The notes under the pieces were generated by a model. It was not told where the DNA came from, ran no database searches, and saw nothing but the letters and a program-made list of their open reading frames with translations. Below, in pieces: positions 3 to 26,414 of a DNA stretch of 32,000 bases; positions within the stretch are counted from its first letter, which is position 1, and each line of letters begins with the position of its first letter. A program made the position numbers and the translations under genes. Source of the stretch: Elusimicrobiota bacterium (GTDB taxonomy: Bacteria > Elusimicrobiota > Elusimicrobia > UBA1565 > UBA9628); the NCBI GenBank assembly GCA_027371715.1, contig DAHXMM010000020.1, positions 1 to 32,000 of the forward strand, written 5' to 3'.

Positions 3-3000
3 GGAGATCATCCGACATCTATTGGATCTATCTATGAAAGCCCAGATGGAGTCAATTGGAATTTAGTTTATGCGACTTCAACAGATGCCAATTTCGGGGC
101 TCTATCCGACTTTAACGGGCAACTCTATGCCGGCAGTGTCAATGGTTCAATCTATCAAATCACCCCCGTCGCCGCGACCTTGGCCGGCTCCGATGGGACC
201 AACGCCGCAGAGAAACTCTCGGCTACCGGCCTCAATCTCGTTCAATCCACAAGTACCGTGACCTGCGGCGGGGTTTCTCCTTGCGGGGCGACTGATCAAA
301 TCATATTCACCGCCTCAGATTTGGCGGGAAATGTTTTGGAAAGCGGCCCCTACGCAATTTTAGTCGATACCACCGTCGCTCCGGCAATCTCAACGCCTTC
401 CTATCCCTCAAACGGCGCCTATCTCAACTATCAGACGAATTTCAGCTGGATAGGGCCAAGCACGACCGTCGTCTCGGGGCTCTTGCCTCCTTCCTTTTAC
501 CAACTTGAAGTCTCAAACAACGATCCCACTTTCGCGACGACTTTCGTCAATATCTCAACACCCATTCCGCCGGTCAATACCGGGCTCGCCACCGACAACG
601 GCGCTTATATCTCGACTTACACGTTCGCGAATTTGACGACCTATTATTGGCGCGTGAGAACCGTGGACGGCTTTGGGGGGACCAGCCCCTGGTCCGAGAC
701 CTTCAATTTTACCACCGATTTTTCAAGTCCGACAGCTGTCAACGGAAGTTTCGCGACGCTCAACAGTCTTGGTGGACTCGTTCCAGAAACTCAGGTCACC
801 GTTCTCCAAAACGGGGTGACGGCTCAGCTCAACATCACCGACATCGGGAGCGGGTTTTCCGCATTCAACTCCACGGATTATTCCGTCAGATATTCCACCA
901 ACGCCGGCGCTGTCTGGATTTCAGATCCCTTTTCCGCCCTCGCTTTCACGGGCTTAATCGGCCAAACCTCGACCCAAACTTTCACGGCCTACGGGCTCAA
1001 TCTCGCCGCCTCAACCAACAGCATCGTCTGCGCCGGAATTTCTCCCTGCGGCGCCAGCAATCAAATTGAATTTACGTTTTCGGATCAGGCCGGTAATTTC
1101 ACTACAGCCGGGCCTTATGCCATCATCGTCGACACTCATTCAACCGACGTCTTGGTCTCAACCGCCGATGTCGCGCCCTTGGGAATTCCGCAAAACACCT
1201 CCGTCGCTTTTATCCGATTGACTTTAAACAGTCTCGCCGGAACGGCGCCCTGGACCGGTCTGACGGTTGAACGCCTGGGAAGCGGAACGGACTCGGATGT
1301 TCAAAACGTCGCCATCTACCGCGATTCCCTAGGGACCGGAATTTTCTCGCCCTCGGATACCCAAATCACTCAAAACGCGGTTTTTTCCGGAGGCGTAGTT
1401 AATTTGACGATGACTAATCCCGAGAGCATCACGACCTCGACCAAGACCTATTTCGTGGTCTATACCGCGGCCGCCGGGGCCTTGGTTGGAGACGGTCTCC
1501 AAGCGGAAATTACCTCGACCGCCTCATTTACCTTCAACGGCGGATACGCGATGAGCGCGGCCCAGACGACGATTTATCCCTTGATTTCCAGCACCGCGAC
1601 CGTCGTCGACGGCCCTAATTATCTCTACATCACACCCACAAGCAAGGCGCCCTCGGATGACCCGCCGGGAACCGCCAATATCGAGATGCTCGCCTTAAAA
1701 GCTTATACCAATACCGGAACAAGCACTCTTTCCAAAATCGTCTTTAATCTTTTGGGCACGGGCGCCTCTAATGACATCAGCGCCATCTCCATTTACCGCG
1801 ACTCAAACGGCACCGGAGTCTATGCTAATAACGACGAACTCGTCACCAGCGGTTCGGACGCCTTTTTAAACGGAGTTTCGACCGTCGCCTTCACGACCAC
1901 CATCGCCTCCGAAACCGTGACGACTTCTCCCATTTATTATTTTGTCCTCATCAGCTTGTCTCCGAACGCGCCTTTGGGAGACACGCTGGGAGTTTCCATT
2001 TCCACCCCGTCCAATGTCGAGCTCATCGACGTCTTGGATACGACCACCTTTACAAGCAACCCCGCCGCGTCTTCCCTACTAACTATCGAATACGTCAACA
2101 CCTTGAACGTCCAGGGCGCAAGCCAGATTCCGCCGTCTCTTTTGCAGGGGCAGGAATACGCGGTGTTAAAGGCGAGTTTCACTGTCTCAACAGGGGAAAC
2201 TGCCTTTGATGGAATGGATATCACGCGCCTGGGGCTCGGGCACGATTCGGATATTTCAGCCGTAAGGATTTGGCAGGACCCCAATCCGCCCGAGGCTTTT
2301 AACCCAGCCACTTTCCTTCAGTTGAGTTCCGGAAGCTTCGTCAACGGAAACGCGCAGCTAAACTTTCCGCTTCAAACCTTGTCGGCCGGAACGACCTACG
2401 TCTATTACGTCACCTATGATATCAGCCCCACGGCCACGCAGGGAGACACGTTGGGCGGACGCATTACCAGTAATCTGGATATCTCAGACACCAATCCCGG
2501 AACGACGATTGTCGGCAATTTCTCGATTAATTCGGCCACTTCCCCCGTGGTTCCAACGACCGCGGGGCTTTTTGTCGGCGCTCAAAACGTCGCCCCCAGC
2601 GATCTCTTGCAAGGCGCGACCAATCAACAAATGCTCAATTTGACGATGGATACCACTCAATACTCGGTTCTTTTGGGAGCTTTGACCTTTAATTCCTTGG
2701 GAACGGCGGCGTCTTCCGACATCTCGCGCGTTGAGGTCTATCAAGATCTAGTGGGAAACGGAATTCTAAATACCACCAAAGATCCTCTTTTATCGGCGCT
2801 CTCATATCCTTTTATATCGGGAACCGGCATCATCCCTTTTTCATCTGGAATTACCATCAGCACCATTTCCATCACTCTTTTGGTCGCGGTGGACGTCTCA
2901 ACCGGGGCCAACTATATCAATAACGATTTTGGAATCGGCATCGCGACCCAGGCCAATATTTCGATTAATTCTCCCAATTTCGTCGTTCCCTCAACGACCA

Positions 3001-4481
3001 CTTTCCCGGCTGATTCCGGCATTATTCCCATCACCAAGTCTCCGGATGTCTTGAGCGTATTTCCGACCAACCTTATCAACCCCGCCGGCGTCGTTCAAGG
3101 CCAAAACGCGCCGGCGACGGAACTCAGTCTGATCACCCAGCACAGTTCGGTGACCTGGACGACGATTGCCGTCCAAAGAAGCGGGACCTTGCCGGATTCG
3201 GGAGTTGATTCCGTCAATGTTTATTACGACGCCGATCAAAACGGGGTGTTTGATTCCTCGGACGTCTTGGTCGGAAGCGCGCCGTTTGTTTCCGGAACGG
3301 CTAACATTTCTTTTTCCACCGCTCAGCTGGTCAATCCCGGAGGTTCGGACTATTTCGTCACGCTTCAAATCGATCCGAACGCCACACCCGGAGATACCAT
3401 TGGAATTTCTCTCTCTGGAAATTCTAACTTTAAGGTTTTGCCTCCAGATACGGTTTCGGGATCGAGCCTTCCTTTTAATTCGGCCCTGGCGCCGGTCTTA
3501 AACATAAAAACTCCGATCACGCCCGTCGTCACATTCCCCAATGGAGATTTTTCCAGTTCCTTTGACTCCATCGGATTTATCTGGTATTCGACCGTCGCCG
3601 TCGGGTCTATTTCAAGCGCGGCCTATGCCGTAGGAACGACGCCCGGGGGAACCGATATTGCGCCCTACACCAATATCCCTTTCGCCGCTTCCAGCTTTAC
3701 CGCGGTCAATCTTCTGCTCAGTAACGGCGCGACCTATTACGTATCTGTCGAAGCGACGTCCAACTACGGTTTTACCAGTCCGCCGGGAACCAGCCCCGGG
3801 TTCCTGGTCGATTTGATTACGCCCATGCCGCCGAGTAGTTTGACGGCTAATGTCGGAGTCAGCTCGATTTATCTCACCTGGAATCCCGGCAGCGCGGGGC
3901 CCTCGGGACTCGCGGGATACCTGCTTGAATATTCCGATGTCGAACATCCGACCTGGTATAACGCGAAAACCGGAGCGGTCTCCGCCCTGGAGATGGGGAC
4001 TGTCCCTAACTCCGCCAGCCCGCATTCCGTCTTGTCGGCGAATTTTATTTCCGCTTCGCCGTTCTTGTTCAATAGCCCGCCGCAAGGAACTCTGATGTTC
4101 CGCGTCAGTTCAGTCAACGGCGCGGGGGTACAAAGCGCGCCTTCCGACACCATTCGCGTGCTTTTTGGGACGCAATCGACGGCGGGAATATCCAACGTTT
4201 CCTCCTATCCCAATCCCTTTAATTCTAATTCCGGCGTGGCCACCATCGTCTATACCTTGGACGCGCCGGGAAGCGTCTCGATTCAAATCTACAGCGTCTT
4301 TGGAAGTCTCGTCAAAAGTTTCTCTTATTCCGGTGGAGGCACGGGGGGAGAAGCCGGAGTCAACACCGTCACCTGGGATGGGACGGATTCCGGGGGCCGC
4401 AAAGTATCGAAGGGAATTTACATTGCCGTCCTTAAAGCCAACGGCATGAGCGTCCAATACAAGATCGGGGTCAATCACTGA
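3..4481 (+). CDS. Very large secreted/surface protein (5' end outside window): fibronectin-III-like domains, five repeated ~150-aa modules, C-terminal FlgD-Ig-like domain
   Basis: Listed ORF starts at an internal TTG (180), but the frame is open back to position 3 (GDHPTSIGSIYESPDGVNWNLVYATST...). C-terminus YPNPFNSNSGVATIVYTLDAPGSVSIQIYSVFGSLVKSF...GVNTVTWDGTDSGGRKVSKGIYIAVLKA resembles FlgD Ig-like/sorting-type domains; FnIII-like YYWRVRTVDGFGGTSPWS. Confidence 0.85.
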   Translation, partial: GDHPTSIGSIYESPDGVNWNLVYATSTDANFGALSDFNGQLYAGSVNGSIYQITPVAATLAGSDGTNAAEKLSATGLNLVQSTSTVTCGGVSPCGATDQIIFTASDLAGNVLESGPYAILVDTTVAPAISTPSYPSNGAYLNYQTNFSWIGPSTTVVSGLLPPSFYQLEVSNNDPTFATTFVNISTPIPPVNTGLATDNGAYISTYTFANLTTYYWRVRTVDGFGGTSPWSETFNFTTDFSSPTAVNGSFATLNSLGGLVPETQVTVLQNGVTAQLNITDIGSGFSAFNSTDYSVRYSTNAGAVWISDPFSALAFTGLIGQTSTQTFTAYGLNLAASTNSIVCAGISPCGASNQIEFTFSDQAGNFTTAGPYAIIVDTHSTDVLVSTADVAPLGIPQNTSVAFIRLTLNSLAGTAPWTGLTVERLGSGTDSDVQNVAIYRDSLGTGIFSPSDTQITQNAVFSGGVVNLTMTNPESITTSTKTYFVVYTAAAGALVGDGLQAEITSTASFTFNGGYAMSAAQTTIYPLISSTATVVDGPNYLYITPTSKAPSDDPPGTANIEMLALKAYTNTGTSTLSKIVFNLLGTGASNDISAISIYRDSNGTGVYANNDELVTSGSDAFLNGVSTVAFTTTIASETVTTSPIYYFVLISLSPNAPLGDTLGVSISTPSNVELIDVLDTTTFTSNPAASSLLTIEYVNTLNVQGASQIPPSLLQGQEYAVLKASFTVSTGETAFDGMDITRLGLGHDSDISAVRIWQDPNPPEAFNPATFLQLSSGSFVNGNAQLNFPLQTLSAGTTYVYYVTYDISPTATQGDTLGGRITSNLDISDTNPGTTIVGNFSINSATSPVVPTTAGLFVGAQNVAPSDLLQGATNQQMLNLTMDTTQYSVLLGALTFNSLGTAASSDISRVEVYQDLVGNGILNTTKDPLLSALSYPFISGTGIIPFSSGITISTISITLLVAVDVSTGANYINNDFGIGIATQANISINSPNFVVPSTTTFPADSGIIPITKSPDVLSVFPTNLINPAGVVQGQNAPATELSLITQHSSVTWTTIAVQRSGTLPDSGVDSVNVYYDADQNGVFDSSDVLVGSAPFVSGTANISFSTAQLVNPGGSDYFVTLQIDPNATPGDTIGISLSGNSNFKVLPPDTVSGSSLPFNSALAPVLNIKTPITPVVTFPNGDFSSSFDSIGFIWYSTVAVGSISSAAYAVGTTPGGTDIAPYTNIPFAASSFTAVNLLLSNGATYYVSVEATSNYGFTSPPGTSPGFLVDLITPMPPSSLTANVGVSSIYLTWNPGSAGPSGLAGYLLEYSDVEHPTWYNAKTGAVSALEMGTVPNSASPHSVLSANFISASPFLFNSPPQGTLMFRVSSVNGAGVQSAPSDTIRVLFGTQSTAGISNVSSYPNPFNSNSGVATIVYTLDAPGSVSIQIYSVFGSLVKSFSYSGGGTGGEAGVNTVTWDGTDSGGRKVSKGIYIAVLKANGMSVQYKIGVNH
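3996..4006. repeat. Dispersed palindrome GGGACTGTCCC (inside the large surface-protein CDS)
   Basis: gagatgGGGACTGTCCCtaactccgcc; read as EMGTVPNS. Confidence 0.9.
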
Positions 4482-5110
4482 CATGAAAAAAAAAGGGACA
4501 GTCCCTTTTTCGGCCGCCCCACATGAGAATCCAGCCCCATTTTCTTTCTTGTCTCCAGCTCACATCCATCATCCACGATATATTTGTAAATCTCCACTCT
4601 CTTTTGGGAAAAGTCAGCCAAAGACAAATAAGCGGGGCTCTCTTCCAAAAAAGGGGACTGTCCCTTTTCTCCCAAATAAAAGCGATAACTGGACCAAGAA
4701 TAATCTTCCGGTTTCCGCGCGATGGCCGCGCGCACGGGATTTAACTCGATATAGCGGCCGCAAAGAAGAAGACTTCGGTCCGTCGGCAATAAAACGCTTT
4801 TATAGCGCCCCTGCCAGAGATGCCCCACCGAGGAATTTTTCTCTCGGAAATAATCGGAATACCCCTGTAAAAGCTTTTGCATCGCCTTGCTCAGGTCTTC
4901 CGGCTTTTGAACCTGGACCAAGAGATGAATATGGTTGGGCATCAGAACATAATGATGGATCCGAAAAGGATTTTTCACCTTGCTCCACCGCAGAATGTCC
5001 AAAAATCTCTCATAATCGGCTGTTTCATGGAACACGGCTTGACGATTATTCCCGCGCGCCATCAAGTGGTAAAACCCTCCTTCAATCAAATGTCTCCCGC
5101 ATCTTGACAT
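4475..5110 (-). CDS. REP-associated tyrosine transposase (RAYT, Y1_Tnp/IS200-like family)
   Basis: HUH motif in HYVLMPNHIHLLVQV, downstream GYSDYFREKNSSVGHLWQGRYKSVLL and YIELNPVRAAIARKPEDYSWSSYRFYLG, characteristic of RAYTs. Confidence 0.92.
   Translation of the reverse strand: MSRCGRHLIEGGFYHLMARGNNRQAVFHETADYERFLDILRWSKVKNPFRIHHYVLMPNHIHLLVQVQKPEDLSKAMQKLLQGYSDYFREKNSSVGHLWQGRYKSVLLPTDRSLLLCGRYIELNPVRAAIARKPEDYSWSSYRFYLGEKGQSPFLEESPAYLSLADFSQKRVEIYKYIVDDGCELETRKKMGLDSHVGRPKKGLSLFFSCQ
4495..4505. repeat. GGGACAGTCCC, A/T-flanked copy (inside RAYT 3' end)
   Basis: aaaaaGGGACAGTCCCttttt. Confidence 0.9.
4654..4664. repeat. GGGACTGTCCC inside RAYT CDS
   Basis: aaaaaaggGGACTGTCCCtttt; RAYT residues EKGQSPFLEE. 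Confidence 0.9.
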
Positions 5111-5186
5111 ATCAGAGTCTCCCCTTATCCGAATTATCTCCTACCTCTCATACGTCAAAAACGAGAAAAAAGTTCCCTCAAAAAAA

Positions 5187-5197
5187 GGGACAGTCCC
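5187..5197. repeat. GGGACAGTCCC, A/T-flanked copy
   Basis: AAAAAAGGGACAGTCCCTTTTTT perfect palindrome 5181-5203. Confidence 0.9.
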
Positions 5198-5205
5198 TTT
5201 TTTCA

Positions 5206-6765
5206 TTGATTCTAAACAAAAAAGGGACAGTCCCTTTTTTCTTATTTCTACTTCTCTCCTCCATATCGGCATCGGCCGCGAGCTTCTATGCGGGTTCTCC
5301 CAACGAGATATTTCAATTCGGCGCGGATGCCAGGGCCATGGGCATGGGCAACGCCTACACCGCCATTGCCGGTGGAGCGTCTTCCCTTTATTACAACCCG
5401 GCGGGCCTCGGTCTTCTCAATGGCCCCGATGTCAGCGCCATGCAGGCCAGTCTTATTGGCGGCGCGGCCTATGAAGATTTATCCTACGCCCAAAATTTCT
5501 CAAAAATGCCGGGAGCTTGGGGCGTTGAAGCCCTCAATATGGGAGTGGGAGGGGCCGAGCAAAGAGACTCTCAAAATAATCTCACCGGAAGCTTTGGTTT
5601 TCAAGAAACCGGATACGGAGCGGGATTTGGCCTAAGGAATGTCGTCATTCCGAACTTATCCTTGGGAGGCTCTTTTCAGGGGCTCAGCCGAAGCTTGGGC
5701 GGTAGTTCTTCCGACATGCTCTATGGAGCGAATTTGGGAGCCCAGTACGGCCCCTTTTTGGACAATATGGTGACCGCGGGTTTGGTCCTCCAAAACGGTT
5801 TTAACGGAGCGCAAAATACCTTTGACCGGCTACCCACGGTTTTACGCGCAGGGCTCGCCGTCACTCCCATCAATAATCTTCTCATTTCCGCGGATTACGG
5901 CGATGATGGCGATTACGGAATCGGCGCGGAATATCGAATATGGATGTTCGCCATACGAGCCGGATATATCCCCCAAGGCCTCACCTTCGGCGCCGGAATC
6001 TATTATCAATCTCTGGAAGCCGATGTCGCGATGGTCAACGATCCAATTTTTGGAATGGGGGAGAGATTCTCGCTTAATTACCGATTCGCGGGAAAGAAGA
6101 AAGAAAAGCCTCTTGAAGCTTACACTAATAGTTATCTGGATGCCGCAAAAAAAGAATTAAGTCTCCGCAATTATCTCAGCGCGCAATTCGCGCTTGAAGA
6201 AGCGATGGGAGTCTCTCCCGCTCAGATTCCTCAGACATGGAAAGAAAAACTCAAACTTCTTCAAGCTTTTAATGGCAGCCTAGATCTCAAAAACCGTCCG
6301 GATGAGGTCAAAACTCTCCTTGCAAAAGATCAACCGGCCATACTCGCCCAAAAATCGGTTTTTTCTTATTTAAACGGACGCGACGGAGACGCCATGATTT
6401 GGGCGTCCGTGGCAGCCGGAACCGCTCATAAATCCATGCCCTATATTGACTTTGTCAAGACGATGGCTTATCTTACGAATATGAAGGTTTCGGAAGGGGA
6501 TTTATTGCCTCCACCAGATTATGTTTCCAAAAAAATGGAGACTGCTCTTCATGCTATTTATCAAAAGCGTTTTGCCAATGCGGTTAAAAATTGCCAACAG
6601 GCCATCGTGGTAAACCCGAAAGAGCCTTCTGCCTGGACGCGGCTGGGTAGCGCTTATTTTGCCTGGGGACATAAGGATGAAGCCAAAAAAGCCTATCAGA
6701 AAGCTTTAGAGCTTGATCCCAAGAACGAAAATTTAAAGAAATTTATGGAGATGTATATCAAATGA
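5206..6765 (+). CDS. PorV/PorQ (UPF0164)-like outer-membrane beta-barrel protein with C-terminal TPR repeats
   Basis: FYAGSPNEIFQFGADARAMGMGNAYTAIAGGASSLYYNPAGLGLLNGPDVSAMQASLI is typical of the PorV-like family; C-terminal EPSAWTRLGSAYFAWGHKDEAKKAYQKALELDPKNENLKKF is a TPR. The track ORF starts at 4483, but 4483-5205 is antisense to the RAYT. TTG 5206 gives MILNKKGTVPFFLFLLLSSISASA/ASF, a plausible signal peptide. Start uncertain. Confidence 0.8.
   Translation: MILNKKGTVPFFLFLLLSSISASAASFYAGSPNEIFQFGADARAMGMGNAYTAIAGGASSLYYNPAGLGLLNGPDVSAMQASLIGGAAYEDLSYAQNFSKMPGAWGVEALNMGVGGAEQRDSQNNLTGSFGFQETGYGAGFGLRNVVIPNLSLGGSFQGLSRSLGGSSSDMLYGANLGAQYGPFLDNMVTAGLVLQNGFNGAQNTFDRLPTVLRAGLAVTPINNLLISADYGDDGDYGIGAEYRIWMFAIRAGYIPQGLTFGAGIYYQSLEADVAMVNDPIFGMGERFSLNYRFAGKKKEKPLEAYTNSYLDAAKKELSLRNYLSAQFALEEAMGVSPAQIPQTWKEKLKLLQAFNGSLDLKNRPDEVKTLLAKDQPAILAQKSVFSYLNGRDGDAMIWASVAAGTAHKSMPYIDFVKTMAYLTNMKVSEGDLLPPPDYVSKKMETALHAIYQKRFANAVKNCQQAIVVNPKEPSAWTRLGSAYFAWGHKDEAKKAYQKALELDPKNENLKKFMEMYIK
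5224..5234. repeat. GGGACAGTCCC, A/T-flanked copy overlapping a predicted signal peptide
   Basis: AAAAAAGGGACAGTCCCTTTTTT perfect palindrome 5218-5240. Confidence 0.9.
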
Positions 6766-6900
6766 AAGAAACGGAAAGTAAAAGAAAGTTACGGAAAGAA
6801 AATGAAAGAAACAGAAAAAGGCCTTACCTTGCTCTTCGTTCCTTTCTGTTGCTTTCCGTTACTTGCCGTTGCTTTCCGTTTCTTGCCGTTGCTCGCCGTT
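6761..6900. repeat. Inverted pair of imperfect 20-bp tandem arrays (three purine-rich units, then three pyrimidine-rich units)
   Basis: 6761-6820: aatgaaagaaacggaaagta / aaagaaagttacggaaagaa / aatgaaagaaacagaaaaag. 6841-6900: cctttctgttgctttccgtt / acttgccgttgctttccgtt / tcttgccgttgctcgccgtt. The reverse complement of unit 1 shares CTTTCCGTTTCTT with 6872-6884. Confidence 0.75.
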
Positions 6901-6903
6901 GCT

Positions 6904-6908
6904 GGAGG
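6904..6908 (+). promoter_or_regulatory. Shine-Dalgarno GGAGG upstream of ATG 6914
   Basis: gctGGAGGttatcATG. Confidence 0.7.
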
Positions 6909-6913
6909 TTATC

Positions 6914-9430
6914 ATGGACATCTTAATGATCGTTTTTATTCCCAGTCTTTTTATCATCCTGGGAGCCCTAATGTTTATCGTCAGCCGGGTGATGGAATTC
7001 TCGCAATCCAATCGTTATTTCGCAAAACAAAGAGGAAACAGCCTTATGTTTACGCGTTTCATGACTCAAATTGCCATGGCCAAAAGCCAACTTGGAAAAA
7101 GAGCCCAGGAATTGGAAGCTCTGTCCATGCGCCTTCAAATGAATAACGAAGAACTTGCCCGGCTCAACAACCTCAAAATGAAATTCTTATCAATGGCGGT
7201 TCATGATATTCGAAATCCACTCACCGCTATTACCGGTTACAGCGACATTTTGTCTCGCAACAAAAATCTAGGACCCAAAGAGCAGGTTTTGTCAAAAATG
7301 ATTTTGACCGCGACCCGGCAAATCAACCATCTGATGGGAGATCTCACCGATCTCGCCGTCATCGAAGCGGGAAAATTTAAAATGGAAATGGCGCCCTTTG
7401 ATCTGGCCGGACTCATCCAGGAAGTAGGGGCCACTTTGACCCCGGGAGCCTCCAACAAAGGCGTCATTCTTTCTGTTCGAGAACCTCCGCCCGGAATTAT
7501 CATCACCGCCGACCGCTACCGCATTTGGCGCGTTTTGACGAATCTTTTGGGAAATGCCGTTAAATTTACCCCTTCTGGAGGACGCGTCGAACTCCGGGCC
7601 GAAGTCGCGGCGGGAATGGCCATGATTTCAGTCCAAGACAACGGCCCCGGGATTCACCCGACCGAACGGCGGAAAATTTTTGAAAAGTTCTACCAGTCAA
7701 AACACATCAAAGATGAAAAAGCCCGCAAGGGCGGCTGGGGATTGGGACTGGCCATCGCCCAAGAAATTGTTCAGTCCCACGGGGGAGAAATCGGAGTCGA
7801 CAGCCGTGGTCTCGGACACGGTTCTACTTTTTGGGTTCGCATTCCTCTTAAAGCCAAGCGCCCCATCCGCTCCAGCCCCATGCGTCTTGCGCTCGCTTTA
7901 ATCGGGTTTTTAGCGCTCTCTTTGGCGCCGAAAAAAACTCAGGCTCAAACTGTTCCCTTCCTTGAAAAATCAAAATTCGAAAAATCATTGGAAACCAAGG
8001 TGGACGGAGTCCTTCTCAATATCTTGGGGCCCAATCGAGCCAAAGTCATCATCAACGCGACCCTCAATTTCACAAAAACCGAAAGCTTTCAAACCGAAGG
8101 CGCCAGCATCACGACGACAAAAACCTCGGGGCTTCCGTATCTTTGGCAAGAACCCAGTAAAACGGCGCAACCCGAAGAGTTGCTACCGGGAGTGCCGCTT
8201 GATTCCGGCGGCCCGGCTCTTCCCACGCCGCCGCCATCCATCAAGGGCTATAAAAAAGAAGATTCCTTCCCCGCCGAATTTATCAAAAGATTAGACGTCA
8301 CTCTCATTTTGGATAATTCCGTCAAGGGAAACCGGAGCGCCGAAATCGGCAAAATTACGGCCGATCTTCTCAGTCTCAATCCTAAACGAGGAGATTCTCT
8401 GACCGTGGTCCACACCGAGTTTTCTCCGATCTGGAAAACCGTTTGGTACTCTCCGGAAACTGCCGGTATGCTTCTTAAATATATTTTAACCGGATTTCTC
8501 TTTTTTATGGCGCTCATCGTCATCGCCGTCGGATTTATCAAAATCGCCAACGCCATGCGCATGATGGCCAACGCACAATCCCAGCAAATCTCAATGGAAA
8601 TGAAGGGGCTTGATGGCGAGGGGGGAAATGGACCGGGCGGAGTTTTAGGACATAATACGCTCATGATTGGGGATCAGAAATCGGGAGAAAACGCCCCTGA
8701 AAACAAAAACGAACCGGTCATGTTTGACGTGCGAATGGACCAAGTAGAAACCCTGGCTCAAATGCTTCTCCCCGAACCACCTGAAAATGTCGCCATTGTT
8801 GCCTCGCGCTTGACTCCGGATGTTTCAAAAAGGCTCATCGACGCCCTCCCGCCGGAACTGGCGAGCGCGGTCGTCAGTCAACTCGCCCGCCCGCGCTTTA
8901 TCGATCCGGAAATTATCGTCAACTTAAAGGAAGAGTTAGAACGGCGTCTTTCCGGCGCGGTCGGAGGAGTGCATTATCTCGCGGAACTGATGTCGGCCGC
9001 CAGCCAAAAAAGGCGTCATGAAATGCTGGAAGCCGTTCGCTCTCAAAACCAAAACCTCGCCGAGGAACTCAGAAAACGAGTCTTTTTCATCGAGGATCTC
9101 TCAAAACTAACCCAACAAGAATGGTCGTATCTCTTGTCCTTGGTCACTTATCAAGAATGGAGCGCCGGTCTCCATGAGGGTCCCCAAGTCGTCGTTGAAG
9201 CCATCAAACAAAATGTCTCAGAAAAAGCCTGGGGGGTTCTCAGCGAGATGATTGAAGCGGCTTCTCCCACAACAGAACAAACAGAAACGGCGCAAGATAA
9301 AATCGGTCAAAGCGTCTCAGAACTCATCCGGGAACAAAGAATCAAAACCATTGCGCCGCAATTGGGACTTCAAATTCATGAATCTCCAGTTGAAGAAGAA
9401 AAAGGCGCGGAAAGTAGTAAGGGCTCGTGA
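6914..9430 (+). CDS. Histidine kinase (HisKA-HATPase_c) fused in frame to FliF C-terminal-like periplasmic domain, a TM helix and FliG-like M/C domains
   Basis: N-terminal TM MDILMIVFIPSLFIILGALMFIVSRV; H-box SMAVHDIRNPLTAITGYSDIL; N-box NLLGNAVKFTPSGG; G1 VQDNGPGI; G2 GGWGLGLAIAQEIV. Then TM/signal-like MRLALALIGFLALSLAP; FliF_C-like FEKSLETKVDGVLLNILGPNRAKVIINATLNF and IKRLDVTLILDNSV...AEIGKITADLLSLNPKRGDSLTVVHTEFSP; TM LLKYILTGFLFFMALIVIAVGFI; FliG-like ENVAIVASRLTPDVSKRLIDALPPELASAVVSQLA...GGVHYLAELMSAASQKRRHEMLEAVRSQNQNLAEELRKRVFFIEDLSKL...QNVSEKAWGVLSEMIE. The track start at 6863 precedes the better RBS-supported ATG at 6914. Confidence 0.85.
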   Translation: MDILMIVFIPSLFIILGALMFIVSRVMEFSQSNRYFAKQRGNSLMFTRFMTQIAMAKSQLGKRAQELEALSMRLQMNNEELARLNNLKMKFLSMAVHDIRNPLTAITGYSDILSRNKNLGPKEQVLSKMILTATRQINHLMGDLTDLAVIEAGKFKMEMAPFDLAGLIQEVGATLTPGASNKGVILSVREPPPGIIITADRYRIWRVLTNLLGNAVKFTPSGGRVELRAEVAAGMAMISVQDNGPGIHPTERRKIFEKFYQSKHIKDEKARKGGWGLGLAIAQEIVQSHGGEIGVDSRGLGHGSTFWVRIPLKAKRPIRSSPMRLALALIGFLALSLAPKKTQAQTVPFLEKSKFEKSLETKVDGVLLNILGPNRAKVIINATLNFTKTESFQTEGASITTTKTSGLPYLWQEPSKTAQPEELLPGVPLDSGGPALPTPPPSIKGYKKEDSFPAEFIKRLDVTLILDNSVKGNRSAEIGKITADLLSLNPKRGDSLTVVHTEFSPIWKTVWYSPETAGMLLKYILTGFLFFMALIVIAVGFIKIANAMRMMANAQSQQISMEMKGLDGEGGNGPGGVLGHNTLMIGDQKSGENAPENKNEPVMFDVRMDQVETLAQMLLPEPPENVAIVASRLTPDVSKRLIDALPPELASAVVSQLARPRFIDPEIIVNLKEELERRLSGAVGGVHYLAELMSAASQKRRHEMLEAVRSQNQNLAEELRKRVFFIEDLSKLTQQEWSYLLSLVTYQEWSAGLHEGPQVVVEAIKQNVSEKAWGVLSEMIEAASPTTEQTETAQDKIGQSVSELIREQRIKTIAPQLGLQIHESPVEEEKGAESSKGS

Positions 9431-9498
9431 CAAAATAATAACAGTCTCTATTTACTTCGTCATTTCTTCATGATTCAATACCATTTTTGTTCTATCCT

Positions 9499-10443
9499 AT
9501 GGGTATGGCTGAAAGTCCGAAAGGTTCCATCTTTTCCTCCTTAAGGGCGCTGGAAGAAATTCCGGAAGAAACTCCCGCCGCGCCTCCGACTTCGCAAAAC
9601 CCTTCACCCTCTCCCACCCCCGCCGCACAAACACCAACGCCCACGCCGCCACCTTCGCAAGCGCCTCCTCCATCAGATGAGACTTTGAAAGCCGTGGAGT
9701 CAAAAATCGAAAAGTTAGAACAAAAAATCCAGGAGATGGGGACAGTCCCCAATTCAGACCCTCATCTTAACCGTATTGAAGCCCTGGAGCAAAAATTGCA
9801 ACAAATGCAGGAACGCGCCATTCAGGCGGAGGTCGCTCTCAGAGAGCGCGAGAAATCCCAAGAAGCCGCCCGGCGCGAGACGGAATCTCTTCTTCAAAAT
9901 TTAGCGTCCCAGCGCCGGCTTGAAGAATCGGACCGGCAAATGAAGGAAAATCTGGCTTATTGCCGACGCCGAATCGAAGAATTGGAGGAAAAACAATCCT
10001 CTATTAAAATTCCGGATACCCAACAATCGGAAAATGAGTTTAAATCCCTCCTAAAAAGTTTTATGGAACAGATCGAGCTAAAAACAACTCCGGTTTTAGC
10101 GTCTCTTGTTGATCTCAGGAAAGAAAATGAAAACCGCGAAAAAGAAAATCGCGGCATGGAGCAAAGGATAAACGAGATTGAGAAAAATATCAATTCTTTT
10201 TTTTCGACAGAGTTAGGGCAAGCGAGCGCTCTAGCAGAAGGATTACGCCACCTAAAACAAACCGTGGAACGAGTCAACACGGAAACCGCGGAAAAACTCG
10301 AAAAAATAAGCGCCGCTCTAAGCCTATTAGAATTTAGGCATTCCCAAGCGAAAAACACAACAGAAGAATTACGCGCTCTCGATAAAGACTTTCAGAAAAT
10401 ACTCTCCATTCTCGATGCCAGCGTTTCCAACTCGCCCAAATAA
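9499..10443 (+). CDS. Pro-rich linker plus long coiled-coil protein, no recognised family
   Basis: PSPSPTPAAQTPTPTPPPSQAPPPS, then heptad-rich ETLKAVESKIEKLEQKIQE...; ATG 9499 preferred over TTG 9487. Confidence 0.75.
   Translation: MGMAESPKGSIFSSLRALEEIPEETPAAPPTSQNPSPSPTPAAQTPTPTPPPSQAPPPSDETLKAVESKIEKLEQKIQEMGTVPNSDPHLNRIEALEQKLQQMQERAIQAEVALREREKSQEAARRETESLLQNLASQRRLEESDRQMKENLAYCRRRIEELEEKQSSIKIPDTQQSENEFKSLLKSFMEQIELKTTPVLASLVDLRKENENREKENRGMEQRINEIEKNINSFFSTELGQASALAEGLRHLKQTVERVNTETAEKLEKISAALSLLEFRHSQAKNTTEELRALDKDFQKILSILDASVSNSPK
9739..9749. repeat. GGGACAGTCCC inside coiled-coil CDS
   Basis: TGGGGACAGTCCCCA 9737-9751; read as EMGTVPNS. Confidence 0.9.
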
Positions 10444-10444
10444 A

Positions 10445-10455
10445 GGGATAGTCCC
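10445..10455. repeat. Degenerate copy GGGATAGTCCC between coiled-coil gene and motA
   Basis: One mismatch; directly after stop codon TAA. Confidence 0.7.
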
Positions 10456-22920: not shown

Positions 22921-23703
22921 ACTCTGGGGAGGGGGATAAGGTAGTCCGCGCACGGAAAACTCGGCGCTGACATCGCCCAAAATAGCGTTTTCGCCAAAAG
23001 CCGCCATCTCAAGCCTGGCCGAATTAAGCGTTTTCTTCCCACGGCGGATATTGAGGTGAGAGATAAAAACCTTTCCAGAACTCGCGAAATTTTCGCTAAA
23101 GCCAATTTTTTGATCTTCTAATTGATGAGAATTTAAAAACTTTTCCTTTTGACTTCGGTCTAAGATTGAAACAATGACCGGCTGAACCTTAGTCAAACGA
23201 GTTTTCGAAATAAAAAATCTTAACTCCAAATGTTTGCGCAAATCTTTCAAGGATTTAGGAAATAGAGAAACAATAAATTCTCCATTCGAGGAATTTCCGT
23301 AAAATGCGGAAAAGACTTTGGCGGAAGACTCCTCGCCCTTTAAGGCTTTTTTAAGCGTCACTTTTTTAGTCTTTTTGTTTTTAATTTTCTCAACTACATT
23401 TTGAATCTGGCGCACAAAGAAGGCGGATTTAAAGTTTTTCTTTTTCTCTTTAAAAACTTGAATGGGCTTCCAATGGACCGAATCCTTAGGAATGAAAACC
23501 TCTACGGATGCCTTATATTTTTTCTTTTTTTTCTTTAAACTTCCTTTTTTATTTTCTTTCTTAGGACGTTTAAGGGCCAATTTGTGATTAGATTTTGATT
23601 TTTTCGTTGAGGTGCTTGTGGCGACGTTTTGAGCCGGCAAAACAGTAGGAAATGCCGCCCCTAAAAAAAACCACGCCATTAAAATCGAAAAAAATTTTTT
23701 CAA
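22918..23703 (-). CDS. Hypothetical exported Lys-rich protein
   Basis: Signal peptide MKKFFSILMAWFFLGAAFPTVLPAQ followed by a highly basic segment KRPKKENKKGSLKKKKKKYK; 4-bp overlap with valS. Confidence 0.7.
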   Translation of the reverse strand: MKKFFSILMAWFFLGAAFPTVLPAQNVATSTSTKKSKSNHKLALKRPKKENKKGSLKKKKKKYKASVEVFIPKDSVHWKPIQVFKEKKKNFKSAFFVRQIQNVVEKIKNKKTKKVTLKKALKGEESSAKVFSAFYGNSSNGEFIVSLFPKSLKDLRKHLELRFFISKTRLTKVQPVIVSILDRSQKEKFLNSHQLEDQKIGFSENFASSGKVFISHLNIRRGKKTLNSARLEMAAFGENAILGDVSAEFSVRGLPYPPPQS

Positions 23704-26414
23704 GCGAGAACCTTAATCAATTCTTCAAGGCGCGCTTTTTTAGAGAGCGCCGTATCCTGGAGAAACCGCGTTTCAGAGACCTCTTCCATAGCCGCTTTTG
23801 AAAGATAATTGGGATCAGAGAGCTTCTGCGATAATTTGCCCAAATCGTTTTCAACTTTTCCAAGCTCTTTTTTTAAGCGTTCAGATTCTTTCTTAAAATC
23901 AATCAAGCCTTCAAGCGGAACATAGAAGGTAAAGTGCGGAGTCACCGTGGAAGCCGCCTTGGTGGGCAGAGATTCTCGCTTAGAACTTAAGAAAGAAATC
24001 TCTCTTCCCCCGGCTAACGCCGCTAAATAAAGAAGATTCTCTTTTAAGAAGTTTGTCTCTGCGGCGTCTTCGCTTTGACAAATGACGGGAATCTTAAGCC
24101 CTGGAGAGATGCCCAGCTGCGCGCGCAAGGACCTTAAAGACTTAACCGCTTCAATTAAAGCGCTCATTCCTTTTTGGGTTTCTTCCGTAATTTTAATTTC
24201 CGGGACATTTGGAAAACGGGAATTCATCAAAAAATCCGCGGGTTCGGTATCCCAAGTTTTTAGGACCGAATAAATTTCTTCCGTGACAAAAGGCATCAAG
24301 GGATGAAGCATTTTAACGACGCCATTTAAAACGGTTATTAAAACGCGAAACGCCGTTTTTTTGGCTCTTAGATCGGCGCCTTGAAGGCGGAGTTTTGCTA
24401 TTTCTACATACCAATCGCAAAACTCATCCCACAAAAACTCATACATTTTCTCCGTCGCGTTGGCGAGATTATAAATTTCAATTTCTTCTTGAACGGAAAG
24501 AATCATCTTTTGGTATTCAGACAAGATCCAAACATCCGCCGCCTCTAATTGGAAGTTAGGGACTGTCCCTAACTCTTCAGGGGCGACCGCATTCATCAAG
24601 GCAAAGCGCGCGGTATTCCAGAGTTTATTGGTAAAATTTCGTCCGGCAATCAGCGAATCTTCCGAAAATAAGATGTCTTTTCCGGGACGGGCTTGGGAAA
24701 TTAAGGAAAAGCGAAGAGCGTCGGTTCCATATTTGTCCATCATCTCGATCGGATCGATAACGTTTCCGAGAGACTTCGACATTTTTTTTCCCTTTTTATC
24801 GCGAATGATGCCGTGGATAAACGCTTCGGAAAAGGGGACCTTCCCGGTTAAATAGAGACCCATCATCTGCATACGAGCGACCCACAGATAGATAATTTCG
24901 TATCCCGTGACGAGAATTTGAGTTGGGTAATAACGCTGGAGATCCTGATTTTTTTCCGGCCAGCCAAAAACGGAGAAAGGCCAAAGGGCCGAGGAAAACC
25001 AGGTGTCTAAAACGTCGGGGTCTTGAATCAATTCCAAATGACCGCAAACAGAACAAGCCTTTGGCTTTTCGCGAGAGACCACTCCCCTAAGATTAGGAAT
25101 TTGATGGAAAGATGAGTCTTTTGAAATCGCGTTGCATTTAAGACAGTACCAAACGGGAATTTCATGTCCCCACCAAATTTGGCGGGAGACGCACCAATCG
25201 CGAATATCGAGGAGCCAGTTCCTATAAGGCTCTTTCCAGGAGGCCGGATAAATTTTAAATTGGTTATTCTCCAAAGTCTTCAAAGCCCCGGCGGCCAAGT
25301 CCTTGGTTTTAACAAACCACTGCCAGGAAAGAAGCGGTTCAATAATTTCCTGACAACGATAACAAATTCCGACCGCGTGCGGATGGGTTTCCGTCTTTTC
25401 CAAAAAGCCTTGGAATTCCAAGTCTTGAATAATTTTTTTGCGCGCATCTTCTCTGGACAATCCGGCATAAAGGCCGCCTTCTTCAGTGATTTTTCCGGAA
25501 GGGGAAATGACCTTGATGCGGGGAAGTTGATGCCGAAGACCCATTTCAAAGTCATTGGGATCATGAGCGGGAGTGACCTTGACGGCTCCCGTTCCAAAAG
25601 AAGACTCGACAAAACCATCTTCAATCACCGGAATTTCTCGGTTCACAAGCGGCAAGCGAAGTTTTTTTCCAATTAAAGACCGATAGCGCTTGTCCTCGGG
25701 GTAAACGGCGACCGCGACATCTCCCAGCATGGTTTCAGGCCGGGTGGTGGCCACAACCAACCCCGGTCCGCCGGAAGCCTCCGGGTAGCGGATATGCCAG
25801 AGATTTCCCTTTCTTTCCTCATGCTCAACTTCTATGTCGGATAAAGCCGTTCCGCATCTCACGCACCAGTTGACCAACCGCTCCCCGCGGTAAAGAAGCC
25901 CGTCATCCCACAATTTTTTAAACGCCTCAAAAACGGCCGCTTTTCGTTTTTCATCCATCGTAAAGGACTCACGGCTAAAATCAAGCGAACATCCGAGTTT
26001 CTTGAGTTGCCCCAAAATCGTCTCTTTACAATGAAGCGTCCAATCTTCCATGCGCTGGGTAAAAGCCTCCCTTCCAATTCTAACGCGAGAAGTGTTTTCA
26101 GCCTTTAAAATTTTTTCCATTACGGTTTGAGTCGCGATGCCGCCGTGATCGGTTCCAGGAACCCAGCAGAGATCTTTTCCTGACATTCTCTTTAAGCGGG
26201 CCAGAAAATCTTGAATGGTATTATTGAGCGCATGCCCAACATGAAGCGCTCCCGTTACATTCGGAGGGGGAATGACCAGGGAATACGGTTCTTGATTTAA
26301 ATCAGGATGAGAATTGAAAATCCCCGATTGAGCCCAATGGTTCACCCAGCGAGCCTCAACATCCTTGGGACTATAGGCTTTGTCCCAGGTTTTTATTTCG
26401 GTCGTTTCATTCAT
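23700..26414 (-). CDS. valS: Valyl-tRNA synthetase
   Basis: IPPPNVTGALHVGHALNNTIQDFLARLKRMSGKDLCWVPGTDHGGIATQ; GKKMSKSLGNVIDP; C-terminal coiled-coil. Confidence 0.98.
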   Translation of the reverse strand: MNETTEIKTWDKAYSPKDVEARWVNHWAQSGIFNSHPDLNQEPYSLVIPPPNVTGALHVGHALNNTIQDFLARLKRMSGKDLCWVPGTDHGGIATQTVMEKILKAENTSRVRIGREAFTQRMEDWTLHCKETILGQLKKLGCSLDFSRESFTMDEKRKAAVFEAFKKLWDDGLLYRGERLVNWCVRCGTALSDIEVEHEERKGNLWHIRYPEASGGPGLVVATTRPETMLGDVAVAVYPEDKRYRSLIGKKLRLPLVNREIPVIEDGFVESSFGTGAVKVTPAHDPNDFEMGLRHQLPRIKVISPSGKITEEGGLYAGLSREDARKKIIQDLEFQGFLEKTETHPHAVGICYRCQEIIEPLLSWQWFVKTKDLAAGALKTLENNQFKIYPASWKEPYRNWLLDIRDWCVSRQIWWGHEIPVWYCLKCNAISKDSSFHQIPNLRGVVSREKPKACSVCGHLELIQDPDVLDTWFSSALWPFSVFGWPEKNQDLQRYYPTQILVTGYEIIYLWVARMQMMGLYLTGKVPFSEAFIHGIIRDKKGKKMSKSLGNVIDPIEMMDKYGTDALRFSLISQARPGKDILFSEDSLIAGRNFTNKLWNTARFALMNAVAPEELGTVPNFQLEAADVWILSEYQKMILSVQEEIEIYNLANATEKMYEFLWDEFCDWYVEIAKLRLQGADLRAKKTAFRVLITVLNGVVKMLHPLMPFVTEEIYSVLKTWDTEPADFLMNSRFPNVPEIKITEETQKGMSALIEAVKSLRSLRAQLGISPGLKIPVICQSEDAAETNFLKENLLYLAALAGGREISFLSSKRESLPTKAASTVTPHFTFYVPLEGLIDFKKESERLKKELGKVENDLGKLSQKLSDPNYLSKAAMEEVSETRFLQDTALSKKARLEELIKVLA
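24559..24569. repeat. GGGACTGTCCC inside valS
   Basis: GTTAGGGACTGTCCCTAAC 24555-24573, perfect 19-bp palindrome; valS residues EELGTVPNF. Confidence 0.92.

Follow-up and report, generated by a model that had tools for sequence, protein, structure and literature searches.

A REP copy beside a RAYT (REP-associated tyrosine transposase) gene codes for part of the predicted export signal of a PorV-like β-barrel protein. In the window (the whole 32,000-nt stretch of DNA that was analysed), the evidence supports the residues coded by this copy, REP2, as a necessary part of the signal. The frame of the barrel gene is stop-free back through the RAYT gene, so that its real start may lie 720 bases upstream. 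Judging from sequence, we favour translation from ATG 4483, with the REP-built signal internal to the precursor, over TTG 5206 as the sole start, and give it about an even chance. The features concerned are the following.

180–4481, + strand: large surface-protein gene with a C-terminal T9SS type A sorting (CTD) domain; stop codon TGA at 4479–4481.
4475–5110, − strand: RAYT, 211 aa; NF047646, 87.4 bits (cut-off 80); PF01797, E = 1.4e-15.
4483–4485, + strand: ATG one base past the upstream stop (TGAcATG), candidate coupled start of a 760-codon ORF at 4483–6765, from the sequence.
4483–5205, + strand: stop-free leader of 241 codons in the frame of the barrel gene, running antisense to RAYT.
4489–4510, no strand assigned: REP copy at the 3′ end of the RAYT gene and the 5′ end of the leader, read KKGTVPF in the leader frame.
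4648–4668, no strand assigned: REP copy with a T centre within RAYT codons ~148–155; position conserved in L001, L003, L005, and L007.
5170–5172, + strand: AAG at the ATG position of orthologues L003 and L007, upstream of REP1, from the alignment.
5181–5203, no strand assigned: REP1, in-frame QKKGQSLF; orthologue of the one REP that relatives have in the signal.
5206–5208, + strand: TTG, the only canonical start close to the signal, inside the 14-nt REP1/REP2 spacer (5204–5217).
5206–5277, + strand: predicted Sec/SPase I signal, 24 codons if TTG-started, from heuristic features; cleavage predicted after ASA.
5218–5240, no strand assigned: REP2, coding KKGTVPFF; belongs to an in-frame insertion of 45 nt when compared with L001 and of 42 nt when compared with L003.
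5278–6765, + strand: mature PorV-like protein (barrel and C-terminal TPR domain), stop codon included.

In an AF2 model of the barrel protein (pLDDT 87.9), a 14-strand β-barrel occupies residues 75–293 of the 519-aa form and the TPR domain residues 302–518; residues 1–29 are of low confidence, with a helix at 10–18. The top PDB matches are 8gl6_F and 6h3i_F (E = 6e-12 and 2e-10; target TM-score 0.60–0.63), which we take to be the PorV chains of T9SS translocon entries, and FadL and TodX come next. The family model NF033709 (PorV_fam) matches with E = 2.4e-20 but with 73.4 bits, under the curated cut-off of 90, and the scores of the PorV, PorQ, and PorV2 equivalog models are far under their cut-offs. 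Therefore, we name the protein PorV-like, not PorV. As a 14-strand PorV-like barrel, it must be exported.

The barrel may be associated with T9SS: the adjacent cargo gene has a sorting domain, but PorV itself has no C-terminal TPR domain of this kind. TIGR04183 matches the last 133 aa of the cargo protein with 27.5 bits (cut-off 23), and the gene also matches FlgD_ig and fn3. The cargo gene keeps its synteny in all related loci, and the barrel gene has conserved synteny with it and with the kinase gene downstream. We found no literature in which T9SS was studied in Elusimicrobia.

The mature coding sequence, 490 codons, has no indels in nine loci, with dN/dS of 0.04–0.16 over all 36 pairs. Purifying selection on the gene is strong (dN/dS ~0.05), including the comparison of the window with L005 at dS 0.92, and sequence conservation thus supports a functional barrel gene. 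Three public gene calls (P0001, P0061, and P0062) start at ATG 5338, which is M45. This ATG is rejected as the true start, which would drop the signal and the N-terminal motif FGADARAMGMG common to all homologues. As the public calls start at an internal methionine and miss the signal, annotation pipelines mis-handle such loci.

The REP has the sequence AAAAAAGGGACAGTCCCTTTTTT and is present as identical 23-mers in REP1 and REP2, whose starts are 37 nt apart. Its core, GGGACWGTCCC with at most one mismatch, occurs in 16 copies in 32 kb versus 0.34 expected. Within this 32-kb window, most copies are intergenic; other ORFs contain three of them, and the four around the RAYT gene are translated. 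The preliminary description had stated that the A/T-flanked form is free of stops in all three frames, and this holds with either centre base (KKGTVPF; KKGQSLF/KKGLSLF; KRDSPFF/KRDCPFF); the TA-flanked dispersed form has a TAG in one frame. Within the 37-nt doublet, the two copies pair to form a stem of 22 bp; their centres are A and A in the window versus A and T in L005, where the doublet is a true inversion. Both REP1 and REP2 fit a terminator pattern, and a search of Rfam returned only sub-threshold generic hairpin matches. A second REP insertion, 21 nt long and coding EMGTVPN, lies in the neighbouring cargo gene; it is specific to the window and absent from six other lineages compared.

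The RAYT gene is itself conserved. Six lineages share its NH[IV]H motif, which is of HUH type, and its GRYKS region without variation, and its core shows dN/dS of 0.07–0.12 between lineages, with synonymous sites saturated (dS of at least 1.3 across clades). The ORF runs through two REPs in its 3′ part, and REPs stand on both sides of the gene (4489–4510 and 4648–4668 on the 3′ side, 5181–5203 and 5218–5240 on the 5′ side). The same REP–RAYT–REP layout is found in L001, L003, L005, L007, and L010.

Translation of the window from TTG 5206 gives MILNKKGTVPFFLFLLLSSISASA, as first described, followed by ASFYAG past the cleavage site. The codons comprise TTG ATT CTA AAC, eight REP2 codons from AAA to TTC, and TTA TTT CTA CTT onwards to TCG GCA TCG GCC, then GCG AGC TTC TAT. 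The 24 codons finish at 5277, and the end formerly given, 5271, is 6 nt short. REP2 makes up codons 5–12 and contributes two lysines and the first residues of the h-region, in agreement with the earlier proposal that the repeat provides the basic n-region and the beginning of the h-region. The features, assessed heuristically, follow a Sec/SPase I layout: K5 and K6, with an n-region charge of +2; a hydrophobic core, TVPFFLFLLLSSI, with a best 10-residue Kyte–Doolittle window of 2.65; and A-S-A at −3 to −1, all values being inside the range of 49 homologues. The signals of these homologues are classical (N-terminal, 18–25 aa), and the position of the signal relative to the conserved IFxFGA motif matches theirs. 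Without the REP2-coded residues, only LFLLLSSI is left, with no basic residue. Between the window and its sister L005 (dS 0.92), the stretch of 22 codons that begins with REP2 and ends at the cleavage site has changes in 6 codons, each of them synonymous, and the spacer just upstream of REP2 has five non-synonymous changes in six codons.

The start codon is less well conserved than the signal. The closest in-frame ATGs are at 4483, the sole upstream one, and at 5338, the next downstream, confirming that no in-frame ATG is nearby. A start 15–35 codons before the cleavage site is expected; TTG 5206 fits, and the alternative, ATG 4483, would render the signal internal. In the sister lineage L005/L006/L015 (three assemblies), the codon at 5206 is TTA, and the TTG/TTA difference between the window and L005 behaves like a silent leucine change. 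No Shine-Dalgarno sequence was found before TTG 5206. The codon lies in the loop of the 22-bp REP1:REP2 stem, or in a linker between hairpins (−28.9 or −19.7 kcal/mol), and the minimum free energy of 5150–5290 is −40.6 kcal/mol (z = −6.2). TTG 5206 is doubtful as the start.

The history of the start was followed in seven related lineages. All sequences are metagenome assemblies, and key states recur in two to three independent assemblies; a scan of genome contigs for relatives gave no lineage beyond those already compared. In L003 and L007, FPW is immediately preceded by an ATG, which lies upstream of REP1 and is accompanied by AAGGGG or AAGGGTG, both resembling a Shine-Dalgarno sequence. An ATG is close by in L001 too; in an ungapped alignment it lies opposite AAA 5158–5160 of the window. 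The purine-rich, Shine-Dalgarno-like patch before the old start position is kept in all lineages. The in-signal REP (..FPWKWGLSLF..) is ancestral to all RAYT-bearing relatives, and REP2 is absent from five orthologous lineages. We infer that AAG 5170–5172 is the remnant of the ancestral start ATG. The common ancestor would thus have had one REP (REP1) already in the signal, with an ATG just upstream, and the ancestor of the window and L005 would have undergone a change of this ATG to AAG and gained the 45-nt in-frame segment with REP2 downstream of the old start. It had been suggested that the element overwrote the original start and rebuilt an export signal. The start was not overwritten, because the ancestral ATG position lies upstream of REP1 and differs by a point change. 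The second suggestion stands insofar as REP2 codes for KKGTVPFF of the signal, and falls insofar as the older REP1 was already part of it. In L005 and L010 (three assemblies each), no canonical start within 50 codons leaves a usable signal.

A comparison with an orthologue lacking RAYT, as proposed in the preliminary description, is provided by L012. Its signal does contain a REP, and its sole signal-yielding start is the ATG abutting the upstream stop. The mature coding sequences of L003, which has RAYT, and L012–L014, which lack it, are 100% identical over 1470 nt. At the L012 junction, the left junction (stop/ATG and REP) continues straight into the right REP and reads MKKLGTVPISYTAGGAQKFPWSWGLSL.., and the inter-REP segments of L003 and L012 differ at ~9 of 30 positions, with a resemblance to L010.

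The frame between ATG 4483 and the signal is open although it runs antisense to RAYT, with 0 stops in 211 codons versus 4–13 expected. In the window, synonymous shuffles of the RAYT ORF leave 4.9 stops (P = 0.002). The frame is likewise free of stops in L005 (224 codons), L001, L010, and L003 (180 codons, to the contig end), and L007 has one. Across lineages, synonymous shuffles predict 3.8–9.4 stops (P ≤ 0.008 each, the lineages being related and the P values not independent). In the 22 other genes of the window, the same relative antisense frame averages 6.1 stops per 100 codons, and no open run there exceeds 116; the three closest out-of-clade RAYTs have 9–10 stops, matching their own shuffles, and 11 distant RAYT-like ORFs have 1–12, save two truncated ones. 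These controls and the shuffles rule out that the open frame is a general RAYT trait or an artefact of codon usage. Because the synonymous sites of RAYT are saturated, the stops must have been removed by selection and not inherited as absent.

The peptide read from this frame is S/P/K/R-rich, with a net charge of +21, and lacks a hydrophobic segment (maximum 13-residue hydrophobicity 0.74). Its sequence is not conserved (43–52% identity between lineages), and Pfam and NCBIfam profiles give no match to it. As far as the sequences indicate, the leader is constrained only to be stop-free, its amino acids being otherwise free. The contact of an ATG with the upstream stop occurs in every lineage (TGAtATG in L005; TAATG in L001, L007, and L012; TGATG in L010). 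A sigma-70 promoter scan of 4300–5500 found none on the + strand or in the 5111–5205 gap, an uninformative result.

In the favoured route, ribosomes that finish the T9SS-cargo gene would restart at ATG 4483, one base past the stop. They would read the 241-codon leader antisense to RAYT and melt the REP hairpins, which are terminator-like and might otherwise block initiation, and would then go on into the barrel gene without a change of frame. The leader, basic and non-hydrophobic, would remain cytoplasmic. The most hydrophobic 13-mer in the entire 760-aa ORF is TVPFFLFLLLSSI; as the sole strongly hydrophobic stretch, the REP2-built segment would act as an internal signal, KKGTVPFFLFLLLSSISASA, in which KKGTVPFF supplies the positive charges together with the initial third of the hydrophobic core. 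Signal peptidase I would cleave it after ASA (5275–5277). TTG 5206 may contribute some direct initiation, which would not be required. Tentatively, at somewhat less than an even chance, we extend this to the whole arrangement: a REP/RAYT unit inside a host-gene leader, with a coupled start, over 200 codons read antisense to a RAYT gene that is intact and under selection, stops alone selected against, and a REP doublet supplying a cleaved internal signal.

Some observations count against entry from ATG 4483. To place 241 residues ahead of a cleavable signal is costly and out of the ordinary, signals in the family normally being N-terminal and 18–25 aa long, and the canonical TTG of the window gives a signal of textbook length. 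The avoidance of stops may merely prevent polarity or termination, in which case the fusion would not be a functional precursor. A local start can suffice, because L003, L007, and L001 have a nearby ATG and L007 tolerates a stop in the leader.

We regard as possible, though on balance doubtful, that TTG 5206 is the sole start of a classical 24-residue signal, the open antisense frame being irrelevant in this lineage or serving anti-polarity only. Within 44 codons of the signal there is no canonical start but TTG 5206; it leaves 35 residues to the conserved IF motif (10th–90th percentile of the family, about 25–35), and the charge, the A-S-A site, and the hydrophobic window of its product are ordinary (family median of the latter, 2.7). 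Several other window genes also lack an obvious Shine-Dalgarno sequence, and L003, L007, and L001 use local ATGs. However, the codon is TTA in a sister lineage with the same REP doublet and signal, in which the gene has dN/dS of 0.05. A 30S subunit would moreover have to melt hairpins of −19.7 to −28.9 kcal/mol around a 14-nt loop or linker without the help of a Shine-Dalgarno sequence, REP1 and its T-run just upstream look terminator-like, and public gene callers passed over the codon. This explanation also leaves the stop-free leader frame of the same lineage unaccounted for.

An on/off switch, in which the barrel is poorly or not translated while RAYT is present and RAYT-mediated or REP–REP deletion of the RAYT cassette brings ATG 4483 to the signal and turns the gene on, is improbable. 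The identity of the mature coding sequences of L003 and L012–L014 despite the presence or absence of RAYT agrees with switching, as does the L012 junction, which matches the left stop/ATG and REP fused to the right REP. Switching, however, neither requires nor explains a stop-free antisense frame, and the L003/L012 polymorphism looks like inter-lineage recombination and not clean excision, because the inter-REP segment differs and resembles that of L010.

Slightly less probable still is initiation at a rare non-canonical codon near the signal, with no long leader. Table 11 permits ATT, ATC, ATA, and CTG; ATT 5209 is in frame here, an ATT lies in the right flank of the 5′-leader REP of L010, and an ATA is available in L005, AAG being a further equivalent in these two lineages. 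The persistence of the purine patch before the old start in all lineages would suit such a codon. Near-cognate starts are very inefficient and rare, they meet the same structural objections as TTG 5206, and they leave the stop-free leader and the conserved stop/ATG junction unexplained.

That the gene is a start-less pseudogene or non-expressed, its signal a by-product of repeat composition, is very improbable: it would fit the lack of an ATG near the signal and the public starts at M45, which omit the signal and the conserved N-terminal motif, but pseudogene status, which the preliminary description had raised, is ruled out by dN/dS ~0.05 and intact 490-codon ORFs in nine loci, and the signal region has only synonymous changes (all six) in a locus with conserved synteny to the cargo and kinase genes.

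In-frame fusions are known for Rickettsia palindromic elements (RPEs) and other intragenic MITE/ERIC insertions (Ogata et al. 2000, summarised in PMC10969869). The present case resembles RPEs in that a short mobile palindrome is in frame, translated, and tolerated in a host gene that is still selected; the corresponding findings are the 45- or 42-nt REP2 insertion relative to L001 or L003, the EMGTVPN insertion, and dN/dS of 0.05. RPEs are about 100–150 bp long and sited in surface loops of cytoplasmic enzymes, and we know of no cognate transposase. Unlike RPEs, the element here is an 11–23-nt REP hairpin with an adjoining RAYT, and it supplies the n- and h-region of a targeting signal and not a neutral loop. 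A signal-peptide role of RPE-type insertions is unmentioned in the review (PMC10969869).

The locus also resembles REP/REPIN–RAYT systems (Nunvar 2010; Bertels & Rainey 2011, PMC3116915; Ton-Hoang 2012), with one HUH/Y1 RAYT at the locus flanked by REPs, some of these in doublets ~34–37 nt apart, and many dispersed copies that are mostly intergenic. It differs in that REPs are extragenic by definition, whereas four copies here are translated on one or both strands; in that the RAYT is antisense within a host-operon frame kept stop-free; and in its phylum, Elusimicrobia. The REP superfamilies described have GTAG or CGTC tags (PMC3733652); the REP here has TTAG/CTAA-type flanks.

As in classical Sec signals of the PorV/FadL family, the signal has a basic n-region, a core of ~13 residues, and A-x-A at −3/−1, but 8 of its ~20 functional residues come from mobile repeat DNA, its start codon is unconserved even between sister lineages, and the signal may lie inside a precursor of 760 aa. 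Internal signals or signal anchors after a long cytoplasmic N-terminal domain occur in PknB-type kinases and anti-sigma factors, and autotransporters have extended signal-peptide regions. The precursor read from ATG 4483 would resemble such proteins in having a positive, non-hydrophobic N-terminal part and, after it, one hydrophobic segment by which the C-terminal part is sent through the inner membrane; their N-terminal parts are functional conserved domains, whereas the leader here would be antisense-coded filler.

Searches of the literature turned up no description of a signal peptide encoded by a REP. If the favoured reading is true, REPs, defined as extragenic, have been co-opted as coding DNA of a functional targeting signal, beyond the tolerance of a neutral loop. 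Palindromes flanked by an A-run and a T-run read Lys-Lys...Phe-Phe whichever strand or frame is used, which would make them ready-made cassettes for n- and h-regions. The host operon would keep a frame open across an antisense transposase gene, a testable case of selection against stops only. With at least five start solutions in seven close lineages, the locus would show that export can be preserved through repeated turnover of the start codon.

Read from TTG 5206, the PorV-like barrel gene (mature part 5278–6765, +) begins with a predicted signal peptide, MILNKKGTVPFFLFLLLSSISASA, and continues beyond it with ASFYAG. Re-reading of the sequence bears out this signal as proposed in the preliminary description; the start of its span (5206–5271) holds, but the 24 codons run to 5277, leaving the end 6 nt short. 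The REP sequence is AAAAAAGGGACAGTCCCTTTTTT. Two identical 23-mers, REP1 (5181–5203) and REP2 (5218–5240), lie 37 nt apart, and REP2 forms codons 5–12 (KKGTVPFF). As that description also held, REP2 codes for the basic residues of the export signal and for the first part of its hydrophobic core, no in-frame ATG is close by (the nearest are 4483, upstream, and 5338, downstream), and the A/T-flanked REP is free of stops in all three frames. The last point is true whichever base is at the centre; in the TA-flanked form, which is dispersed, one frame has TAG. Without REP2, a heuristic signal-peptide assessment leaves just LFLLLSSI, with zero basic residues; therefore, REP2 is predicted to be functionally necessary to the signal. 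From REP2 to the cleavage site, six codons differ between the window and the sister lineage L005, all synonymously, and the six spacer codons immediately 5' of REP2 contain five non-synonymous changes. The TTG/TTA difference between the two behaves like a silent leucine change. Further REP copies lie at 4489–4510 and 4648–4668, and the GGGACWGTCCC core occurs 16 times in the window (at most one mismatch) against 0.34 expected.

The barrel product matches the PorV/PorQ family model with E=2.4e-20 and 73 bits, short of the curated cut-off (90), and carries TPR repeats at its C-terminus. Its AlphaFold model (42 homologues, pLDDT 87.9) contains 14 β-strands (residues 75–293) and an all-helical domain (302–518), with low confidence at residues 1–29. 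The closest solved structures are chain F of 8gl6 and of 6h3i, both T9SS translocon entries; we take this chain to be PorV. FadL and TodX come next. Such a product has to be exported across the inner membrane. The upstream cargo gene, for a large surface protein (180–4481, +), encodes a C-terminal T9SS type A sorting domain. Homologues of the barrel product come from Elusimicrobia MAGs and have ordinary signal peptides (18–25 residues), with M1 ~25–35 residues (10th–90th percentile) ahead of a conserved IFxFGA motif. The mature CDS, 490 codons, has zero indels in 9/9 loci compared, and its pairwise dN/dS is 0.04–0.16 (window versus L005, 0.052 at dS 0.92). By these measures the barrel gene is predicted to be functional, and the intact mature CDS and low dN/dS in all loci indicate that lineages without a nearby canonical start still make the protein. 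Public gene calls in the window lineage and its sister (P0001, P0061, and P0062) begin at the internal Met45 (5338), and thus lack a signal peptide. The downstream gene (6863–9430, +) encodes a histidine kinase (HisKA and HATPase_c) fused to FliF-C-like and FliG middle/C-terminal domains, and the order cargo, PorV-like, kinase-FliG is kept in all related loci.

The orthologous locus was obtained from seven lineages, most in two or three independent assemblies; all sequences compared are metagenome assemblies, and the lineages are related and recombining.

Orthologous loci: identity to the window; RAYT (transposase ORF); REPs; nearby start.
Window and L004: RAYT present; REP1 and REP2; TTG in the spacer.
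L005, L006, and L015: 92%; RAYT present; same REP doublet; none, TTA at the TTG position.
L007: 91%; RAYT present; one REP in the 5' leader and one in the signal (MFPWKWGLSLF..); ATG directly before FPW, AAGGGTG ahead.
L010, L011, and L016: 86%; RAYT present; REPs as in L007; none, AAG at the old ATG position.
L001 and L002: 85%; RAYT present; REPs as in L007; ATG four codons further upstream (MRRKKFPW..).
L003: 76%; RAYT present; REPs as in L007; ATG directly before FPW, AAGGGG ahead.
L012–L014: 76%; RAYT absent; both REPs kept; ATG overlapping the cargo stop (TAATG): MKKLGTVPISYTAGGAQKFPWSWGLSL.
L008, L009, and L017: 86%; RAYT absent; no REPs, an unrelated CTTTCCGTT-type repeat encoding the signal region; GTG 45 codons ahead of a conserved GSPNE motif.

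L005 has no canonical start within 63 codons. The proposal that the element overwrote the original start does not survive this comparison: the ancestral ATG, common to L007 and to L003, the most divergent lineage, lay upstream of REP1 and is AAG in the window (5170–5172), a point change. REP1 retains its orthologous left flank (AAG TTC CCT) and reading frame, and REP2 is part of an in-frame insertion (45 nt versus L001, 42 nt versus L003). Judged from these alignments, the clade's ancestor already had a REP within the signal. The mature barrel CDS of L012–L014 is identical to that of L003 over 1470 nt, although RAYT is present only in the latter; in the inter-REP segment (~30 nt), L003 and L012 differ at ~9 positions, and the L012 version matches the L010 lineage. 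This pattern suggests recombination whose breakpoints lay at the REPs or close to them.

RAYT (4475–5110, −), a REP-associated tyrosine transposase, scores 87.4 bits against NF047646 (cut-off 80), and the plus frame antisense to it stays open and shares the barrel gene's reading frame. No stop interrupts it for 211 codons (window), 224 (L005), 212 (L001 and L010), and 180 (L003, to the contig end); L007 has one stop, and a good nearby ATG. Synonymous-codon shuffles of each RAYT predict 3.8–9.4 stops (P≤0.008 per lineage, the lineages being related). Among the remaining 22 genes of the window, the corresponding antisense frame shows 6.1 stops per 100 codons, its longest open run being 116 codons. 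The three closest out-of-clade RAYTs (45–52% identity, co-directional with their neighbours) have 9–10 stops, as shuffles predict, and more distant RAYT-like ORFs have 1–12, two truncated ones excepted. The RAYT core is under selection (dN/dS 0.07–0.12) and synonymous sites are saturated across clades, indicating that selection maintains the absence of stops, which is not just inherited. The ATG equivalent to 4483 abuts or overlaps the cargo stop in every lineage; in the window it lies one base past the cargo TGA and opens a 760-residue ORF, whose most hydrophobic 13-mer is the REP2-built TVPFFLFLLLSSI. The leader peptide (4483–5205) is rich in S/P/K/R, with a net charge of +21 and no hydrophobic segment, and is 43–52% identical between lineages. 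In L001 and L010, public calls are 713- or 763-aa ORFs antisense through RAYT, which is then itself uncalled. RAYT runs through REPs at its own 3' end (window 4475–4670, −; L005 1596–1700), where a conserved GRPKK motif precedes a REP-coded tail (KKGLSLFFSCQ in the window, KKGTVPFFEISPKKGTVPFFSYQ in L005); codons ~148–155, right behind the catalytic domain, are one REP. Evolution is faster in the tail (dN/dS 0.14–0.65) than in the core (0.06–0.12).

We favour, with about even confidence, a model in which ribosomes enter mainly at ATG 4483, by coupling to the end of cargo-gene translation. They would traverse the stop-free leader, melting the REP hairpins en route; the positively charged leader would remain cytoplasmic, and the REP2-built segment would serve as an internal signal cleaved after ASA. 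TTG 5206 may add some direct initiation. The main rival, less likely but a serious one, is that TTG is the sole start of a classical signal, as first described: it opens a plausible signal in the window, and no Shine-Dalgarno sequence precedes it. REP1 and REP2 can pair in RNA as a 22-bp stem with TTG 5206 inside the 14-nt loop; the fold of 5150–5290 has an MFE of −40.6 kcal/mol (z=−6.2), and the doublet by itself −28.9 kcal/mol, or −19.7 when the two REPs form separate local hairpins. Either REP also has the pattern of an intrinsic terminator. The stretch between RAYT and the signal yielded no sigma-70-like promoter, a negative to which we give little weight. The minor alternatives are on/off switching through loss of the RAYT cassette and a near-cognate start, both improbable, and a pseudogene, which is very improbable.

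A second RPE-like case is a 21-nt REP in the cargo gene (3990–4010, core 3996–4006), read as EMGTVPN. These residues are exactly missing from the L005, L001, L010, L008, and L007 orthologues (the L012 sequence there is different), indicating an in-frame 21-nt insertion specific to the window lineage. Intragenic cores at 9739–9749 (ORF 9487–10443, +; ..QEMGTVPNSD..) and 24559–24569 (ORF 23700–26414, −; ..EELGTVPNFQ..) are both read as GTVPN. Dispersed cores at 10445, 11247, 19269, and 21516 end 7–12 nt ahead of the next ORF's first start codon (10465, 11270, 19291, and 21534), where a Shine-Dalgarno sequence normally sits. A second repeat family lies at 6764–6900, separating the barrel gene from the gene that follows; its GAAACGGAAAG / CTTTCCGTTTC units form a long imperfect palindrome. 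Upstream of the barrel gene in L008, L009, and L017, this second family takes the place of both RAYT and REPs (L008 2316–2720), and its T/C-rich arm encodes the signal region (..RFPFLSVTFRYVRFFLFLAVSFCSFPFLSLPASA).

In the respects tested, the window element agrees with REP/RAYT systems. In-frame intragenic insertions of RPE, ERIC, and MITE elements are summarised in PMC10969869, and the window REP is likewise used as coding sequence. A limited literature search found no report of a repeat-supplied targeting signal, start turnover, an antisense-nested RAYT, or stop-only selection. The window locus differs from those insertions in its start-codon turnover, in the RAYT nested antisense in the host frame, in apparent selection against stops alone, and in the role of the repeat, which supplies a targeting signal and not a neutral loop.
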